Under the pieces are notes generated by a model that was given only the letters and a program-made list of their open reading frames with translations, made no database searches and was not told the origin of the DNA. From the NCBI RefSeq assembly GCF_024298765.1, contig NZ_CP101210.1: a DNA stretch of 64,000 nt, one strand, 5' to 3'. A program made the position numbers and the translations under genes. Of the stretch, positions 1,130-31,540 are shown in pieces (the stretch's first letter is position 1; each line of letters opens with the position of its first letter). This DNA comes from Escherichia coli (GTDB lineage: Bacteria > Pseudomonadota > Gammaproteobacteria > Enterobacterales > Enterobacteriaceae).

Positions 1130-1205
1130 GGCCCTTTAGCTCAGTGGTGAGAGCGAGCGACTCATAATCGCCAGGTCGCTGGTTCAAATCCAGCAAGGGC
1201 CACCA
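1130..1205 (+). tRNA. tRNA with anticodon CAU (ileX/ileZ-like; Ile2-lysidine or Met)
   Basis: 76 nt, cloverleaf with CTCATAA anticodon loop, GGTTCAAATCC T-arm, CCA end; close to E. coli ileX from memory. Confidence 0.8.
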
Positions 1206-1206
1206 A

Positions 1207-1283
1207 CCGTCACCAGTTCATCAGGAAAGAGCGTCAACCCTTTAAGTTGAGTGTGCGAGGTTCGAGTCCCCGGTGGCGGTCCA
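1207..1283 (+). tRNA. tRNA-like gene, non-canonical (anticodon loop CCTTTAA, possibly UUU/Lys; C33 instead of U33)
   Basis: Acceptor stem with one G-U, T-arm GTTCGAGTCC with one A-C mismatch, CCA end; may be a degenerate or pseudo tRNA. Confidence 0.4.
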
Positions 1284-1285
1284 GT

Positions 1286-1361
<76 letters not shown>

Positions 1362-1364
1362 TAT

Positions 1365-1439
<75 letters not shown>

Positions 1440-3790: not shown

Positions 3791-4330
3791 TTAGAAACTG
3801 CGTGGAGCTGTGGAAAGAATGGATGCCAGTTCTTCCTTCGATAAATCCCAGCTTCGATTTACAGCGTCAATTTTCTTAAACTCATCAAGCATTGCGTTAT
3901 AGAGATGTTCTGTACGTGAATGAGTATTGGCAATGGGCTGTTTCTGTTCGGGGAAGCGATCAATTTTCTGATATGCCTCAATGATACTGAAGTAATCGCA
4001 TTCATTATTACCGTCGAAACCTGGGAGCTGAATTGCCCCATCATGTATTTTTAGATGATGGTCACGGACTAATTCTTTTTGCTCGTCATCACTAAGTTTC
4101 CTGAAAGCATTGGAAAGTCCGCGATACATATTCAAGACAGCAGTAACAAAATCACGATCTTCTTTACTTGGTTCGTCAACATCCAAATGTGAATATTCGG
4201 CCTTGATAACCCAATCATTACCAGATGACACAGCATATTTAACAAGCTGTGGATCAATATCAGTTTCGATACCTAGGTGGATGGCAATGTCACATAACAA
4301 AATGGTATTGATTTTATCTTTAATATCCAT
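3791..4330 (-). CDS. Accessory (moron) protein, 179 aa, resembling YfbU/UPF0304 family; reverse strand at the lambda bor position
   Basis: Own RBS AGAGGG and promoter-like upstream region; motif pattern MY..L, GFD, C-terminal region reminiscent of YfbU (from memory, unverified). Confidence 0.5.
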   Translation of the reverse strand: MDIKDKINTILLCDIAIHLGIETDIDPQLVKYAVSSGNDWVIKAEYSHLDVDEPSKEDRDFVTAVLNMYRGLSNAFRKLSDDEQKELVRDHHLKIHDGAIQLPGFDGNNECDYFSIIEAYQKIDRFPEQKQPIANTHSRTEHLYNAMLDEFKKIDAVNRSWDLSKEELASILSTAPRSF

Positions 4331-4468
4331 GAGTTAACCCTCTGAAGTAAAAAGTAATATCTACACCCGTTGGCTCATGAAGTCTATTGATCTGTCTCAT
4401 ATCAGCAGCAAATCTATTCCATGGAGATACTCAATGCAGGTCACCTTTGATTTATATAAGGGCGAAAC

Positions 4469-4819
4469 ATGCCAGCACTAATCCCACGCGCCTGCCGTAA
4501 GCGTGGATGTGCAGGTACAACCACAGACAGTTCTGGTTACTGCGATAAACATCGTGGCGAAGGATGGGTACAGCATCAACGCGGACTGAGCCGCCACCAG
4601 CGTGGCTATGGCTCGAAATGGGATGCCATACGTGCGCGCATACTGAAGCGTGATAATCATCTGTGTCAGAACTGCCTGCGCAATGGGAGAGCCGTTGAAG
4701 CCAGAACTGTGGACCACATCATTCCGAAAGCTCATGGTGGCACGGATGCAGACAGTAACCTGCAGAGTCTGTGCTGGCCCTGTCATAAAGCAAAAACAGC
4801 GCGCGAACGCATCAATTGA
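4469..4819 (+). CDS. HNH endonuclease (terminase-associated)
   Basis: Cys-rich N-terminus and H-N-H signature DHIIPKAHGGTD...N...LCWPCH. Confidence 0.85.
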   Translation: MPALIPRACRKRGCAGTTTDSSGYCDKHRGEGWVQHQRGLSRHQRGYGSKWDAIRARILKRDNHLCQNCLRNGRAVEARTVDHIIPKAHGGTDADSNLQSLCWPCHKAKTARERIN

Positions 4820-19285: not shown

Positions 19286-22200
19286 ATGGGTAAAGGCAGC
19301 AGTAAGGGGCATACCCCGCGCGAAGCGAAGGACAACCTGAAATCCACGCAGTTGCTGAGTGTGATTGATGCCATCAGTGAAGGGCCGATTGAAGGTCCGG
19401 TGGATGGATTAAAAAGCGTGCTGCTGAACAGTACGCCGGTGCTGGACAGTGAGGGGAATACCAACATCGTCGGTGTCACGGTGGTGTTCCGGGCTGGTGA
19501 GCAGGAGCAGACTCCGCCGGAGGGATTTGAATCCTCCGGCTCCGAGACGGTGCTGGGTACGGAAGTGAAATACGACACGCCGATCACCCGGACCATCACG
19601 TCGGCAAACATTGACCGACTGCGTTTTACCTTCGGCGTGCAGGCACTGGTGGAAACCACCTCAAAGGGGGACAGGAATCCGTCGGAAGTCCGCCTGCTGG
19701 TTCAGATACAGCGTAATGGTGGCTGGGTGACGGAAAAAGACATCACCATTAAGGGCAAAACCACCTCGCAGTATCTGGCCTCGGTGGTGGTGGATAACCT
19801 GCCGCCGCGCCCGTTTAATATCCGGATGCGCAGGATGACGCCGGACAGCACCACAGACCAGCTGCAGAACAAAACGCTCTGGTCGTCATACACCGAAATC
19901 ATCGATGTGAAACAGTGCTACCCGAACACGGCACTGGTCGGCGTACAGGTGGATTCGGAGCAGTTCGGCAGCCAGCAGGTGAGCCGTAATTATCATCTGC
20001 GCGGGCGTATTCTGCAGGTGCCGTCGAACTATAACCCGCAGACTCGGCAATACAGCGGTATCTGGGACGGAACGTTTAAACCGGCATACAGCAACAACCC
20101 GGCCTGGTGTCTGTGGGATATGCTGACCCATCCGCGCTACGGCATGGGAAAACGTCTTGGTGCGGCGGATGTGGATAAATGGGCGCTGTATGTCATCGGC
20201 CAGTACTGCGACCAGTCAGTGCCGGACGGCTTTGGCGGCACGGAGCCGCGCATCACCTGTAATGCGTACCTGACCACACAGCGCAAGGCGTGGGATGTGC
20301 TCAGTGATTTCTGCTCGGCGATGCGCTGTATGCCGGTATGGAACGGGCAGACGCTAACGTTCGTGCAGGACCGACCGTCGGATAAGGTGTGGACCTATAA
20401 CCGCAGTAATGTGGTGATGCCGGATGATGGTGCGCCGTTCCGCTACAGCTTCAGCGCCCTGAAGGACCGCCATAATGCCGTTGAGGTGAACTGGATTGAC
20501 CCGGATAACGGCTGGGAGACGGCGACAGAGCTTGTGGAGGACACGCAGGCCATTGCCCGTTACGGTCGTAACGTCACGAAGATGGATGCCTTTGGCTGTA
20601 CCAGCCGGGGGCAGGCGCACCGCGCCGGGCTGTGGCTGATTAAAACGGAACTGCTGGAGACGCAGACCGTGGATTTCAGCGTGGGTGCCGAAGGGCTTCG
20701 CCATGTGCCGGGTGATGTCATTGAAATCTGCGATGATGACTATGCGGGGATCAGCACCAGCGGGCGCGTGCTGGCTGTGAACAGCCAGACCCGGACGCTG
20801 ACGCTCGACCGTGAAATCACGCTGCCATCCTCCGGTACCACGCTGATAAGCCTGGTTGACGGAAGTGGCAATCCGGTCAGCGTGGAGGTCCAGTCCGTCA
20901 CCGACGGCGTGAAGGTAAAAGTGAGCCGTGTTCCTGACGGCGTTGCCGGATACAGCGTATGGGGGCTGAAGCTGCCGACGCTGCGCCAGCGCCTGTTCCG
21001 CTGCGTGAGTATCCGTGAGAACGATGACGGCACGTATGCCATCACCGCCGTGCAGCATGTACCGGAAAAAGAGGCCATCGTGGATAACGGGGCGCACTTT
21101 GACGGCGACCAGAGCGGCACGGTGAATGGTGTCACGCCGCCAGCGGTGCAGCACCTGACTGCCGAAGTCACCGCAGACAGCGGGGAATACCAGGTGCTGG
21201 CCCGCTGGGACACGCCGAAGGTGGTGAAGGGCGTGAGCTTCCTGCTCCGTCTGACCGTAACAGCGGATGACGGCAGTGAGCGGCTGGTCAGCACGGCCCG
21301 GACGACGGAAACCACATACCGCTTCACGCAACTGGCGCTGGGGAACTACAGGCTGACTGTCCGGGCTGTAAATGCGTGGGGACAGCAGGGCGAGCCGGCA
21401 TCGGTATCGTTCCGGATTGCCGCACCGGCAGCGCCGTCTCGGATTGAGCTGACACCGGGCTATTTTCAGATAACCGCCACGCCGCATCTTGCGGTTTATG
21501 ATCCGACGGTACAATTTGAGTTCTGGTTCTCGGAAACGCGGATTACCGATATCAGGCAGGTTGAAACCACAGCCCGCTACCTTGGCACGGGGCTGTACTG
21601 GATAGCCGCCAGTATCAATATCAAACCGGGCCATGATTATTACTTTTATATCCGCAGTGTGAACACCGTTGGCAAATCGGCATTCGTGGAGGCCGTCGGT
21701 CGGGCGAGCGATGATGCGGAAGGTTACCTGGATTTTTTCAAAGGCAAGATAACCGAATCCCATCTTGGTAAAGAGCTGCTGGAAAAAGTCGACCTGACGG
21801 AGGATAACGCCAGCAAACTGGAGCAGTTTTCGAAAGAGTGGAAGGATGCCAACGATAAATGGAATGCCATGTGGGCTGTCAAAATTGAGCAGACCAAAGA
21901 CGGCAAACATTATGTCGCGGGTATTGGCCTCAGTATGGAGGACACGGAGGAAGGCAAACTGAGCCAGTTTCTGGTTGCCGCTAACCGTATCGCGTTTATT
22001 GACCCGGCAAACGGGAATGAAACGCCGATGTTTGTGGCGCAGGGCAATCAGATATTCATGAACGACGTGTTCCTGAAACGCCTGACGGCCCCCACCATTA
22101 CCAGTGGTGGAAATCCACCGGCATTTTCCCTGACACCGGATGGGCGGCTGACGGCGAAAAATGCCGATATCAGCGGTAACGTGAATGCGAACTCCGGGAC

Positions 22201-23401: not shown

Positions 23402-23412
23402 GTGGGGTGAAT

Positions 23413-26400
23413 ATGGCAGTAAAGATTTCAGGTGTACTGAAAGACGGCACAGGAAAACCGGTACAGAACTGCACAATCCAGCTGAAAGCAAAACGTAACA
23501 GCACCACGGTGGTGGTGAACACGCTGGCCTCAGAAAATCCGGATGAAGCCGGGCGTTACAGCATGGACGTTGAGTACGGGCAGTACAGCGTTATTCTGTT
23601 GGTGGAGGGATTCCCGCCGTCACATGCCGGGACCATCACCGTGTATGAAGATTCCCGACCCGGTACGCTGAATGATTTTCTCGGTGCCATGACGGAGGAT
23701 GATGCCCGTCCTGAGGCACTGCGCCGTTTTGAACTGATGGTGGAAGAGGTGGCGCGTAACGCGTCCGCGGTGGCACAGAACACGGCAGCCGCGAAGAAGT
23801 CAGCCAGCGATGCCAGCACATCAGCCCGTGAGGCGGCAACCCATGCGACTGATGCTGCAGGCTCAGCACGCGCAGCCAGCACGTCAGCCGGACAGGCCGC
23901 GTCGTCGGCTCAGTCAGCATCTTCCAGCGCAGGAACGGCATCAACAAAGGCCAGTGAAGCATCGAAAAGTGCTGCTGCTGCAGAGTCCTCAAAAAGCGCG
24001 GCAGCTACCAGTGCCGCTGCGGCGAAAACGTCAGAAACGAATGCGGCAGCGTCACAACAATCAGCCGCCACTTCTGCATCCGCCGCGACCACGAAGGCGT
24101 CAGAAGCAGCCACCTCAGCCCGGGATGCGGCGGCCTCAAAAGAGGCAGCGAAATCATCAGAAACGAACGCATCATCAAGCGCCAGTAGTGCCGCTTCCTC
24201 GGCAACGGCGGCAGGCAATTCCGCGAAGGCGGCAAAGACGTCTGAGACAAACGCCAGGTCTTCTGAAACGGCAGCGGGACAGAGCGCCTCGGCTGCGGCA
24301 GGCTCAAAAACAGCGGCTGCGTCGTCTGCCAGTGCCGCGTCAACAAGTGCCGGGCAGGCCTCAGCCAGTGCCACCGCCGCCGGAAAATCGGCAGAAAGTG
24401 CCGCATCGTCTGCTTCAACAGCCACAACGAAGGCTGGCGAAGCCACTGAACAGGCCAGCGCAGCAGCGAGGTCTGCTTCCGCAGCGAAGACATCCGAGAC
24501 GAACGCGAAAGCGTCGGAAACCAGCGCAGAATCCTCAAAAACGGCTGCCGCATCGTCCGTCAGTTCGGCGGCGTCATCGGCATCATCGGCGTCTGCTTCA
24601 AAAGATGAGGCGACCAGACAAGCGTCCGCAGCGAAGGGCAGCGCCACGACAGCATCCACGAAGGCGACAGAGGCAGCTGGCAGTGCGACGGCGGCAGCAC
24701 AGAGCAAAAGTACGGCGGAATCCGCGGCAACGCGCGCCGAGACAGCGGCAAAACGGGCAGAGGATATTGCATCCGCCGTGGCGCTTGAGGATGCAAGTAC
24801 GACGAAAAAGGGGATAGTACAGCTCAGCAGTGCGACCAACAGTACGTCTGAAACGCTGGCGGCAACGCCAAAGGCAGTAAAATCAGCCTATGACAATGCA
24901 GAGAAACGTCTGCAGAAAGACCAGAACGGCGCTGATATACCCGATAAGGGACGCTTCCTGAACAACATTAACGCGGTCAGTAAAACAGACTTTGCTGATA
25001 AGCGTGGTATGCGTTATGTGCGGGTTAACGCTCCTGCAGGTGCAACATCTGGAAAATATTACCCTGTTGTTGTTATGCGTTCTGCTGGCTCAGTAAGCGA
25101 ACTGGCATCAAGGGTCATTATCACCACGGCAACGCGAACCGCAGGCGATCCGATGAATAACTGCGAGTTTAACGGATTTGTTATGCCTGGTGGCTGGACT
25201 GACAGGGGGCGTTATGCTTATGGCATGTTCTGGCAATATCAAAACAATGAACGAGCCATCCACTCAATAATGATGAGTAATAAGGGCGATGATTTGCGCT
25301 CTGTGTTCTATGTTGATGGCGCTGCTTTCCCTGTTTTTGCGTTTATTGAAGATGGCCTGTCAATATCCGCACCTGGTGCTGATCTCGTTGTTAATGATAC
25401 GACCTATAAGTTTGGGGCAACAAATCCAGCGACTGAATGTATCGCGGCGGACGTTATCCTTGATTTTAAGAGTGGGCGTGGTTTTTATGAGTCCCATTCG
25501 TTAATCGTTAACGATAACTTGTCGTGCAAAAAACTTTTTGCCACAGACGAAATTGTAGCGCGTGGTGGTAATCAGATTCGAATGATAGGTGGGGAGTATG
25601 GTGCATTATGGCGTAATGATGGCGCTAAAACTTACCTGCTGCTTACCAATCAAGGTGATGTTTATGGTGGCTGGAATACATTAAGACCGTTTGCTATTGA
25701 TAACGCAACCGGCGAACTGATTATTGGAACCAAACTGTCCGCAAGTCTGAACGGTAATGCATTAACAGCAACAAAGCTGCAAACGCCAAGACTGGTTTCT
25801 GGTGTTGAGTTTGATGGTTCCAAAGATATTACTTTAACCGCCGCGCATGTGGCTGCTTTTGCCAGAAGGGCAACGGATACATATGCCGATGCGGATGGTG
25901 GCGTTCCCTGGAATGCCGAATCAGGCGCTTACAATGTCACCCGCTCTGGCGACAGCTATATTCTGGTTAACTTCTATACCGGAGTCGGAAGTTGCCGGAC
26001 CCTGCAGATGAAGGCGCATTACAGAAATGGAGGTCTGTTCTACCGTTCCTCAAGAGATGGCTATGGTTTTGAGGAAGGCTGGGCAGAAGTTTATACCTCG
26101 AAAAATCTTCCACCAGAAAGCTACCCAGTTGGCGCACCAATCCCGTGGCCATCAGATACCGTTCCGTCTGGTTATGCCCTGATGCAGGGGCAGACTTTTG
26201 ACAAATCTGCATACCCGAAACTTGCAATCGCTTACCCATCTGGTGTGATCCCTGATCTGCGTGGATGGACAATTAAGGGCAAACCCGCCAGTGGTCGCGC
26301 TGTATTGTCTCAGGAACAGGACGGTATTAAATCGCATGCCCACAGTGCCAGTGCATCCAGTACGGATTTGGGTACGAAAACCACATCGTCGTTTGATTAC

Positions 26401-26814
26401 GGCACTAAATCCACGAATAACACTGGGGCGCATACCCATAGTGTTAGCGGGACTGCAAATAGTGCCGGTGCGCACCAACACAAGAGTTCCGGTGCGTTTG
26501 GTGGCCCGAACACGAGCATTTTTCCTAATGGTTATACTGCGATTTCAAATCCAAGCCCGTGGATTATGAGCACAACAAGCGGTAGTGGCCAGACTCGTAA
26601 TGCAGGGAAGACATCATCAGATGGTGCTCATACCCACTCGCTGTCCGGCACTGCTGCAAGCGCAGGCGCACATGCACATACTGTCGGTATTGGTGCTCAT
26701 ACGCACTCCGTTACGATTGGTTCACATGGACACACCATCACCGTTAACGCTGCTGGTAACGCGGAAAACACCGTCAAAAACATCGCATTTAACTATATTG
26801 TGAGGCTTGCATAA
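23413..26814 (+). CDS. stf: Side tail fibre protein Stf (about 1130 aa; expanded Ala/Ser/Thr repeat region; His-rich C-terminal fibre domain)
   Basis: N-terminus [26 protein letters not shown] and C-terminus GAHTHS...[11 protein letters not shown] match lambda Stf as recalled. Confidence 0.9.
23760..24800 (+). repeat. In-frame imperfect tandem repeats within stf (recurring AAKTSETNA...SS.SAA units)
   Basis: Repeat units visible in translation; generates long spurious ORFs in other frames. Confidence 0.6.
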
Positions 26815-27395
26815 TGGCATTCAGAATGAGTGAACAACCACGGACCATAAAAATTTATAATCTGCTGGTCGGAACTAATGAATTTATTGGTGAAGGTGAC
26901 GCATATATTCCGCCTCATACAGGTCTGCCAGCAAACAGTACCGATATTGCACCACCAGATATTCCTGCTGGCTTTGTGGCTGTTTTCAACAGTGATGAGG
27001 CATCGTGGCATCTCGTTGAAGACCATCGGGGTAAAACGGTTTATGACGTGGCTTCCGGCGACGCGTTATTTATTTCTGAACTCGGTCCGTTACCGGAAAA
27101 TGTTACCTGGTTGTCGCCGGGAGGGGAATATCAGAAGTGGAACGGCACAGCCTGGGTGAAAGATGCAGAAGCAGAAAAACTGTTCCGGATCCGGGAGGCG
27201 GAAGAAACAAAAAACAGCCTGATGCAGGTAGCCAGTGAGCATATTGCGCCGCTTCAGGATGCTGCAGATCTGGAAATTGCAACGGAGGAAGAAACCTCGT
27301 TGCTGGAAGCCTGGAAAAAGTATCGGGTGTTGCTGAACCGTGTTGATACATCAACTGCACCGGATATTGAATGGCCAGTAGCACCTATAGGGTAA
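26814..27395 (+). CDS. tfa: Tail fibre assembly protein Tfa
   Basis: Positional immediately after stf; size 193 aa. Confidence 0.85.
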
Positions 27396-28254
27396 ATTCG
27401 TAATGATTACCTAAATACGTTATTCTTTTGTTAAAAAAGTGATTTTGCTATAGGTAGGGAGTATGTTCTTGGATTAAGAATAAAAAATCGCCATGAAAGA
27501 GCTTCATGGCGAGTACATAAACGTACAAAATGTGATGAAAGTAGAGTGGCGTAAGCCACTATATTAAGATATGACAATAGCGAAGAAAAGTAAATAACAT
27601 TTCATGGACGTTTAATTGTTAATTATAAAAACTAGAGTGCCCGATATTGTTTATCTTGCTTTAAAATAATGTACTCAAACCAAATTTTTGAGCTAAAAGC
27701 TCAAATAATATAAATGCAATAATAATGTTTAATAAGACAATTAGCTTGCTTTGTATTTTCATTTCGGAATACTGTTAAGTAACTTTGATGACCCTAACAA
27801 TAGATCGGAATTTTCTTAGAGTCAATGGTCACTGTTTTTGCTTGCAAAGCAAATGTTTTGGTGGTTATAAGTTGTCTTAATATAGTCACGCATGCAACTT
27901 GTTCCATGCGGAGATTAAAGATTGGAATATAACGCGAAGATGGAATTAAATTACATTTGCAATAATCAATTTATTATTACTCAATAATTACCGATATTAT
28001 TATTGTAAATTAATCATTAGAGTGCAAAAAGAAATGTAACGGCAAAATAAGAGGACGATAGCTGAGAAAAAAGCGTGCTTTCCCAATCTGGGGCAAATCA
28101 CGTCTGAATGACACCTGAAAACAGGTGGTAGCCTCAAGAAGGCTTGGAATATTCTTCTTTAATGTTATGTAATTCATTGATTTTTCGTGTACGATTTTAA
28201 GACATTTATTCCAAGAAAAATTTTTAACTCTTTGATTTTTCGACTCTGTATCAT

Positions 28255-28316
28255 CGGTCTCGAAAACCGGAGTAGGGGCAACTCTACCGGGGGTTCAAAT
28301 CCCCCTCTCTCCGCCA
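28255..28316 (+). other. serU: Prophage attachment core: 3' 62 nt of tRNA-Ser(CGA) serU ending in CCA, no 5' half
   Basis: Sequence CGGTCTCGAAAACCGG...CCCCCTCTCTCCGCCA matches serU 3' portion as recalled; upstream sequence is not tRNA. Confidence 0.8.
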
Positions 28317-28862
28317 CTTTATCAATGACTTATCTCCTGACTTCCCGCCTTGCTTTTCCTAAACAGAACAATCGTAGAATATTCTTGAAGGGTTAGATCG
28401 TCACTGTTTTCTGTTCGATACTGTGACATTCAGCACTTGATTCGCTATGGAGCTGACAGGAAGGTTTCGAGCGAAAATCTACAGTTATTCAGTCGTTTTC
28501 TTATCGGTCACCATTATTCTTTTAGACATTGATCCTATGAAACTGCCGCAAAGTTGCTGGCGGGAACTGAAGTTGCGTAGAGAAGGGGTCAATAATTGAG
28601 TCAAAAAAGGAACGCGGCCGTCAGATTAAAGCCGCGGGACAAAGTCCATAATTTCCAAGAGTTGTTGAATTTCCCAGCTTTTTTGAAAGCCTTTGTATCA
28701 TACTAACAAGTAAAAAAGGTTTAAACACCAAAATTAACCTATATTTCTGGTTAGCTTTACCATGACAGATGACTTGCTCCTGGAAACATTTGTGCTGCCA
28801 GTCTGTATGGCTGAGTTGTGTATTTATTGTTCGCCTTTTTCGCATTTTTTTTTCTACAGACA

Positions 28863-28898
28863 TAATAAAAAAGACACGACTCAAGTATGAGCGTGTCT
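28863..28898 (-). terminator. Rho-independent terminator downstream of zinT
   Basis: AGACACG ... CGTGTCT hairpin followed by T-run on minus strand. Confidence 0.55.
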
Positions 28899-28986
28899 GA
28901 GTTTGTCTTACTTATTTGTCTTGGCAAATTATTGTTGTTACTACCAGGCACTGTTCTGTTAAATAACTGAAGTCAGCGCAAAAAAA

Positions 28987-29637
28987 TCAATGAGACATCA
29001 TCTCCTCGACCACTTCTTCGCTACTCAACTGATAGGGATAATACGTTGGCCAGTTTTCCATTTCATTCAATAAAGACTGTTGGGAATCATTACCCATAAA
29101 AATGTGAAAATGAGATGATTTTCGTGGTGCAATTATATGATCGCTAAATTGTATATATTTAGGGGCTTTGCTTTCAGGATCTTTACATTCGAATAAGTAA
29201 CGAACGCCTTTCTTGCCTGATTTATAGGTGAGTATTTTGTATCCATCGTAATCATATTTACAGGATGTTGTTTCATTATTTCTATGGAATTCGACAATGC
29301 CGTCCTCAATGCCAATCATCTCGATGTCTGTCACATAACCTTTGCGATAATAATCTTTAATTTCAGCAAATGTTTTGGTTTTATCTGCATCCGCTTTCTT
29401 CTGAAAGACGGGGTCAAGTTTGCCACTTTGCAGTAAAGGATAAACGGATTGCCAGACTCCATCCCAGTCACTGAGCGTTCGGTTTTGTACATTGGCATCA
29501 TCAAAAACACCATTAGCAGCTTTTTGTTCGACCTCTGTTAAGGGTTTGCCGTGTGAGTGATGACCATGCGAAAAGGCAGGAGCGCTAACAATAAAGACAC
29601 CTAAAGCAACAGCCAGTTTATGAAGACGAATCGCCAA
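28987..29637 (-). CDS. zinT: Zinc/cadmium-binding periplasmic protein ZinT
   Basis: Signal peptide plus HGHHSHG metal-binding motif; matches ZinT. Confidence 0.95.
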
Positions 29638-29826: not shown

Positions 29827-29862
29827 GTAGGCCGGATAGGGCGCTCGCGCCGCATCCGGCAG
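29827..29862. repeat. REP (repetitive extragenic palindrome) element
   Basis: GTAGGCCGGATAGGGCGCTCGCGCCGCATCCGGCAG palindromic unit. Confidence 0.8.
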
Positions 29863-29893
29863 GGATAACGCGTACTTTGTCGGCAATATGAAG

Positions 29894-30529
29894 TTATACA
29901 GATAATTTGTTGTGAACCTGCTTGCGTAAACGGTTAAAAAGGGAAAGCAACTTCTTATACCGTAAGGCTAAAAGCAGTACCGCCAGCCCAGCGTAGATGA
30001 GTGGCTGCGGTGAAATAATCTTCACTGACCACAAATAATGTATTGGGGCCAGGATCGCGACAAGATAGACGAAGTTATGCAACTGTTGCCAGTGTTTACC
30101 GAGTTTTCGCTGCATCGCCTGGGTTGAAGTGAACGCTAACGCAAGCAAAATTACCCAGCTGATAATACCTAACGTTAAATAAGGCCGGGTAATTAACTCC
30201 TTACCTAATAACGCCAGATTATTCACGCCCAGCTCCAGCAATGCGTAACTGGTTAAATGCAGTGTCGCCCAGGCAAAGCACCATAAGCCTAACAGGCGGC
30301 GAGTGCGTATCAATAACGGCTGTTTTGCGTAGCGTGCCAGAGGTGTGATTAACAAGGTCGCCAGCAAAAATTTCAGTGCAGTGCGACCAGTAAAATGCTG
30401 AATATCTTTCACCGGATCGGCACCCAATCCACCGTGATTAATCGCCCAGACCAGCCAGAGAAACGGCAACAATCCGGCAAGATGCAGGCAAACTTTCAGC
30501 CATGTCACCTGTTTTGCTGTCAGACGCAT
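29894..30529 (-). CDS. msrQ: Methionine sulfoxide reductase haem-binding subunit MsrQ (YedZ)
   Basis: 211-aa polytopic membrane protein; matches YedZ. Confidence 0.9.

Positions 30530-31540
<1,011 letters not shown>

Follow-up and report, generated by a model that had tools for sequence, protein, structure and literature searches.

The attR junction of a lambdoid prophage in serU and the yodB-less serU-zinT interval of Escherichia coli

Positions 28255-28316 of the window (the whole stretch of Escherichia coli DNA that was analysed, 64,000 nucleotides long) are the distal (attR) junction of a lambdoid prophage in serU. The region as a whole can be read with high confidence as the attR of a prophage of about 41 kb, followed by the unmodified serU-zinT region of a common haplotype that lacks yodB. 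The absence of yodB is unrelated to the prophage, and the feature is ordinary and already known in kind; it is mildly instructive in that the yodB-less state looks ancestral, in that it is tightly linked to the yersiniabactin island, and in that some phages carry a fossil of the junction. The features to the left of the junction, and the junction itself, are:

23407-26814, plus strand: side tail-fibre gene, 1135 aa (open reading frame; the same gene is annotated in 13P477T and phage mEp332)
26814-27395, plus strand: tail-fibre assembly gene (open reading frame; likewise annotated in 13P477T and phage mEp332)
27396..28254, no strand: gene-less prophage arm, the P arm of attR, 859 bp with 31% GC
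28255..28316, plus strand: att core, the 3' 62 nt of serU in the displaced chromosomal copy, with 100% identity to serU 29-90

The core matches positions 29-90 of the 90-nt tRNA-Ser(CGA) gene serU at 62 of 62 nucleotides, and blastn aligns it to serU of K-12 and of AR_0015 at 100% identity (E = 4e-30); ARAGORN finds no complete tRNA at 28255-28316, and no further copy of the 62-nt core occurs in the whole window. The original prediction that only the 3' 62 nt of this tRNA are left is thus borne out. K-12 and AR_0015, in which serU is intact, represent empty sites, and their match to the window begins exactly at 28255, the position at which non-lysogen genomes start to align. In AR_0015 the order is mtfA, serU, 669 bp, zinT, with nothing integrated at serU, and identity to the window is 99.8% across 846 bp, running through zinT. 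On the other side of the core, the genes at 23407..27395 (plus strand) form the right end of a lambdoid prophage, and the arm that follows them is missing from non-lysogens and 99% identical in the free phages mEp332, PhiR70_1 and ev099. With tail-fibre genes to its left and the empty-site alignment starting at 28255, the serU fragment does mark the distal prophage junction, as was originally proposed; to the right, zinT, msrQ and msrP show that the DNA is native chromosome.

Some further elements of the prophage part are recorded here as side observations. The tail-fibre assembly gene contains a full-length match to Rfam IS009 at 27157-27355 (plus strand; 226 bits, E = 1e-56). The arm at 27396-28254, in which no gene is annotated in E. 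coli genomes, has a strong minus-strand terminator at 27488-27512 plus a T-run, and two short open reading frames, both on the minus strand: a hydrophobic one of 33 aa at 27661-27762, and one of 37 aa at 27794-27907, which is "hypothetical" in the PhiR70_1 annotation; a small toxin or sRNA locus in this arm is possible. Downstream of the Q antiterminator region, at 1130-1439 (plus strand), the prophage has a cluster of four tRNA genes, assigned by ARAGORN to Met(CAT), Lys, Thr and Gly; in 13P477T, PGAP annotates the first of them as tRNA-Ile.

The other prophage end (attL) lies beyond the window and is described from the near-identical 13P477T, not from this genome. 13P477T is 99.9% identical to the window across the junction and, judged by the offsets of the tRNA cluster and of attR, is colinear with it over 27 kb to within 22 bp. 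An intact serU lies 41 kb upstream of its attR junction, with a tyrosine integrase gene directly behind it; after the integrase come DUF4224, an exonuclease, early lambdoid genes and the remainder of the prophage. Scaled from this arrangement, attL and the integrase gene of the window prophage would lie about 12.8 kb before window position 1. The attL core of 13P477T is identical to the attR core at 60 of 62 positions, the differences being A48G and T59C; these two positions of serU form a base pair of the variable arm, and the changes are compensating, with the phage-type pair G48/C59 in the attL copy and the chromosomal pair A48/T59 in the attR copy. Since the rebuilt tRNA thus has phage bases and attR has chromosomal ones, strand exchange would have taken place in the anticodon stem-loop, no further than 19 nt into the core. 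In the mechanism proposed here, the phage tyrosine integrase would have recombined an attP containing a 62-nt copy of the 3' half of serU with serU itself; an intact tRNA would have been rebuilt at attL from a chromosomal 5' part and a phage 3' part, and the original chromosomal 3' 62 nt would have been moved to attR, at 28255-28316. The integrase gene of 13P477T (20395-21445 of the stretch retrieved from that genome) is annotated as frameshifted, so that this copy of the prophage may no longer excise.

From the core into the chromosome, the features are:

28317..28763, no strand: native chromosomal DNA downstream of serU, 447 bp, common to both E. coli haplotypes
28601..28636, minus strand: weak terminator-like hairpin with a U-run (fold -14.9 kcal/mol, z = -2.1)
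28764..28986, no strand: segment specific to the yodB-less haplotype, 223 bp, in place of the 995-bp yodB segment of K-12
28867-28898, minus strand: intrinsic terminator of zinT, a hairpin then UUUUUU (-17.9 kcal/mol, z = -3.6)
28987-29637, minus strand: zinT (yodA), periplasmic metal-binding protein (PF09223, E = 3e-85)
29894-30529, minus strand: msrQ (open reading frame, and annotation in other genomes)
30530-31534, minus strand: msrP (open reading frame, and annotation in other genomes)

The spacer between core and zinT (28317-28986, 670 bp) is AT-rich (37-40% GC) and gene-less, in agreement with the original prediction: its longest open reading frame has 87 aa, the four longest ones have no Pfam match, and the PGAP annotations of AR_0015 and 13P477T show no gene in the corresponding interval. 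Rfam, searched at E <= 1, returned only sub-threshold chance matches from the tRNA fragment (Plastid-psbl-rps4, the 3' end of tmRNA, and sX4). The terminator that had been ascribed to zinT is present, as the minus-strand hairpin with U-run around 28867-28898. The weaker hairpin at 28601-28636, which has its K-12 counterpart about 250 nt downstream of yodB, may also function as a terminator, to judge from its predicted fold and U-run. Within the spacer, 28317-28763 is 96.5% identical to K-12 and 99.8% to AR_0015, and the spacer is present over at least 80% of the query in 2279 genomes. Beyond zinT, a REP-like element lies at 29830-29895, between zinT and msrQ, with a sub-threshold match to naRNA4 (35.8 bits, where the gathering score is 59.5); the 100 bp around it are the part most divergent from K-12, at 87% identity.

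In K-12 the order is zinT, yodB, serU (b1973-b1975), as the original prediction stated and as the K-12 annotation has it, and the zinT-serU interval measures 1442 bp. The window resembles K-12 at 95-97% in zinT, in the 3' end of serU and in the 447 bp downstream of serU, with the zinT hairpin kept; it differs in that K-12 has 995 bp with a 176-aa cytochrome b561 homologue, YodB (PF01292), where the window has 223 bp. The replacement is clean, its breakpoints lying at 28763/28764 on the left and exactly at the zinT stop codon on the right. The K-12 segment consists of yodB and flanks of 122 and 342 bp, and is unrelated to the 223 bp except for the hairpin; a search of the 223-bp segment for a yodB remnant (blastn at a word size of 7, and shuffle-controlled Smith-Waterman alignment) yielded only this 39-nt hairpin in common with K-12. 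A tblastn search with YodB found no homologue in the whole window (best E = 0.57), so that yodB is absent from this strain, as one of the originally proposed alternatives had it.

Both forms are widespread. Of 5426 complete E. coli genomes, 2304 (about 42%) have the 223-bp haplotype and 3114 (57%) the yodB haplotype with its 995-bp segment, each essentially in single copy, and jointly they cover nearly every one of these genomes. An interval without yodB, which the original prediction called unexpected, is thus the normal state in 2304 of these genomes, and the spacer is the ordinary chromosomal intergenic region, 99.8% identical in the non-lysogen AR_0015, which is the outcome that the original prediction had given as its own refutation. 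Since yodB is accessory and missing in about 42% of complete genomes, its absence beside a serU prophage is no sign of rearrangement, and K-12 gene order is an unsafe reference for the serU-zinT interval.

A literature search found no paper that mentions both zinT and yodB; the presence or absence of yodB is already a clone marker in ST410, where it distinguishes B4 from B5 (PMC10786849). In an even sample of genomes, with phylogroup and population structure uncontrolled, those that carry the yersiniabactin island (at asnT, 2 kb away) divide into 14 yodB-less and 1 with yodB, those that lack it into 2 yodB-less and 25 with yodB. This association agrees with the two ST410 clones, of which one is fyuA-positive and yodB-negative, the other fyuA-negative and yodB-positive (PMC10786849).

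The yodB-less form is likely to be the ancestral one, yodB having reached part of E. coli by horizontal transfer; the yodB of K-12 is accordingly seen as a probable accessory insertion or replacement of horizontal origin. E. albertii has zinT, 567 bp and serU, without yodB. Its alignment with the window runs 34 nt beyond the left breakpoint, with 24 of 32 positions identical in the haplotype-specific part and an identity near the breakpoint of only 54-76%; its alignment with K-12 ends exactly at this breakpoint. E. albertii also matches 28860-28986, within an HSP of 84%. In Escherichia sp. MOD1-EC7003 the zinT-serU interval is shorter still and again without yodB, and no YodB homologue was found within 4 kb of zinT in 80 Enterobacterales loci (78 besides the two Escherichia); as this set left out the E. 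coli and E. fergusonii reference loci, the outgroup evidence is that of E. albertii and Escherichia sp. MOD1-EC7003. Because the yodB-less form is common in E. coli, is present in a non-lysogen and is colinear with E. albertii, it looks ancestral, and not the product of a deletion.

The opposite polarity, offered as one alternative in the original prediction, would make yodB ancestral and deleted in this lineage, with the 670-bp spacer as the scar of the deletion. In keeping with this, K-12 and the other genomes of the yodB haplotype have the gene at this very position, the terminator hairpin of zinT is common to both haplotypes, and mismatches between the haplotypes are concentrated near the breakpoints, in the 40 bp or so next to the left one and in the final 100 bp of zinT, a pattern to be expected of old, linked haplotypes. 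Against it, the yodB-less form has 223 bp that are missing from the yodB form, which makes this a replacement rather than a simple deletion, and the diversity of these 223 bp within E. coli (up to 8%) shows the segment to be old. With E. albertii colinear with the yodB-less form across the breakpoint, with yodB missing from a second Escherichia species, from the 78 other Enterobacterales zinT loci and from 2304 E. coli genomes, the deletion is unlikely.

With the yodB-less form taken as ancestral, the history may still be more complex than one insertion. The 39-nt zinT hairpin, located some 90-125 nt beyond the stop codon of zinT, is homologous in the two haplotypes (z = 7.2 against shuffles), so that the yodB segment is not wholly foreign; it is homologous in E. 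albertii as well, and its U-run is present in E. albertii and in the yodB-less haplotype. In K-12 the hairpin (3876-3912 of the retrieved K-12 stretch) is kept and the U-run is replaced by AUAUUAAUAA; by this loss, read-through from zinT into yodB becomes possible in K-12, which is offered as speculation. The ends of the yodB segment show no terminal inverted repeats or target duplication on inspection.

As to the source of yodB, its nearest relatives outside E. coli are 72-77% identical and scattered in Citrobacter, Hafnia and Salmonella. The homologue of Citrobacter portucalensis (76% identical; 4001-4540 of the retrieved stretch, opposite strand) is in a prophage, with the lysis cassette on one side and the HNH/terminase genes on the other, which is the position of a typical phage moron; in Salmonella the gene lies on the chromosome in unrelated surroundings. 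When K-12 yodB and its flanks are compared with the Citrobacter prophage, homology is confined to the coding sequence (71.6%), and in the phage collection the only closer YodB is in flanking host DNA of the SerU-LTIIb record; these comparisons yielded no donor. That yodB of K-12 is itself a horizontally acquired, moron-like gene is a tentative idea and on balance a doubtful one. It is suggested by the prophage location of the closest non-E. coli relative checked, by the place of yodB directly behind zinT and beside the serU phage hotspot, and by the removal of the terminator U-run with the insertion, through which yodB might be reached from the zinc-regulated zinT promoter. A further pointer is the zinT-yodB pair itself, which joins a cytochrome b561 to a periplasmic protein of lipocalin-like type and so recalls the YceI-type lipocalin/cytochrome b561 operons bcnA/lcoA (PMC9113575). 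If the idea were true, strains with and without yodB would differ functionally in their zinc or oxidative-stress response, and linkage to the yersiniabactin island at asnT would be part of what keeps the two haplotypes separate.

Part of the spacer is found in phages as well:

28317..28594, no strand: spacer sub-part, 278 bp, also internal to mEp332-type lambdoid phages, where it lies beside a fossil serU core

The phages mEp332, PhiR70_1 and ev099 resemble the window at 99% over 27396-28316 (phage arm and serU core) and at 96.5% over 28317-28594. They differ in that the junction is internal and non-functional, with an AraC-family regulator and IS remnants coming after it, and in that their own integration takes place at the lambda site near ybhB-bioA; in strain 537-20, the block 27396-28594 is the right end of a prophage at the lambda site beside ybhB-bioA. 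At least 80% of a query holding the arm-core-spacer block is carried by 168 E. coli genomes. The 278 bp adjoin a fossil serU core that has the same phage arm on its other side, an arrangement typical of capture from the chromosome and not of donation to it. The phage block is a fossil attR, probably captured by imprecise excision of a serU-integrating ancestor, and would have been carried along after a swap of the integration module.

Integration into serU is documented for Sp14 of O157 Sakai, for an Stx1d prophage and for the LT-IIb phage (PMC8190617, PMC9729726). When complete E. coli genomes are sampled at even spacing, the alignment is cut at the end of serU in 17 of 59 chromosomal rows, so that an element is integrated there in roughly 29% of genomes. 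A second class of elements at this site has a core of only the last 14 or so nucleotides (window 28303-28316); examples are an island of E. coli BH100 that encodes a tyrosine integrase and a PilV shufflon adhesin, and an element in Escherichia sp. MOD1-EC7003.

That serU is used by at least two element classes (with the 62-nt core and with the core of about 14 nt), that the spacer has a low GC content, and that its first 278 bp are also inside free lambdoid phage genomes could suggest that it is, wholly or in part, leftover mobile-element DNA from earlier serU integrations, as the original prediction had considered; this is most improbable, since non-lysogens have the same spacer, 28255-28763 is found in 5422 of 5426 complete E. 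coli genomes, prophage or not, the first 130 bp of 28317-28763 are conserved at 85% in E. albertii and at 85-93% across E. albertii and Escherichia sp. MOD1-EC7003, zinT itself has the same GC content (39.5%), the phage copies show the marks of capture from the chromosome, and the spacer is without a second att core. Such a core, in degenerate form, had been proposed as something to look for, and nothing above chance was obtained from ungapped k-mer scans with shuffled controls, blastn-short and a repeat search of 28317-28986, the best 15-, 20- and 30-mer matches not rising above the shuffled controls.

The reading as an attR beside an unmodified, yodB-less interval places the junction among known systems. 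Sakai Sp14, the Stx1d prophage of O121:H7 RM8082 and SerU-LTIIb have the same serU target as the window prophage (PMC8190617, PMC9729726); in these, the prophage is located between serU and the yodB/zinT side, with the 3' part of the tRNA duplicated distally, as here. The comparison with serU-integrating lambdoid prophages covers the target and the junction. The window prophage differs from them in its chromosomal background: it resides on a yodB-less chromosome, and its distal neighbour is therefore zinT, not yodB.
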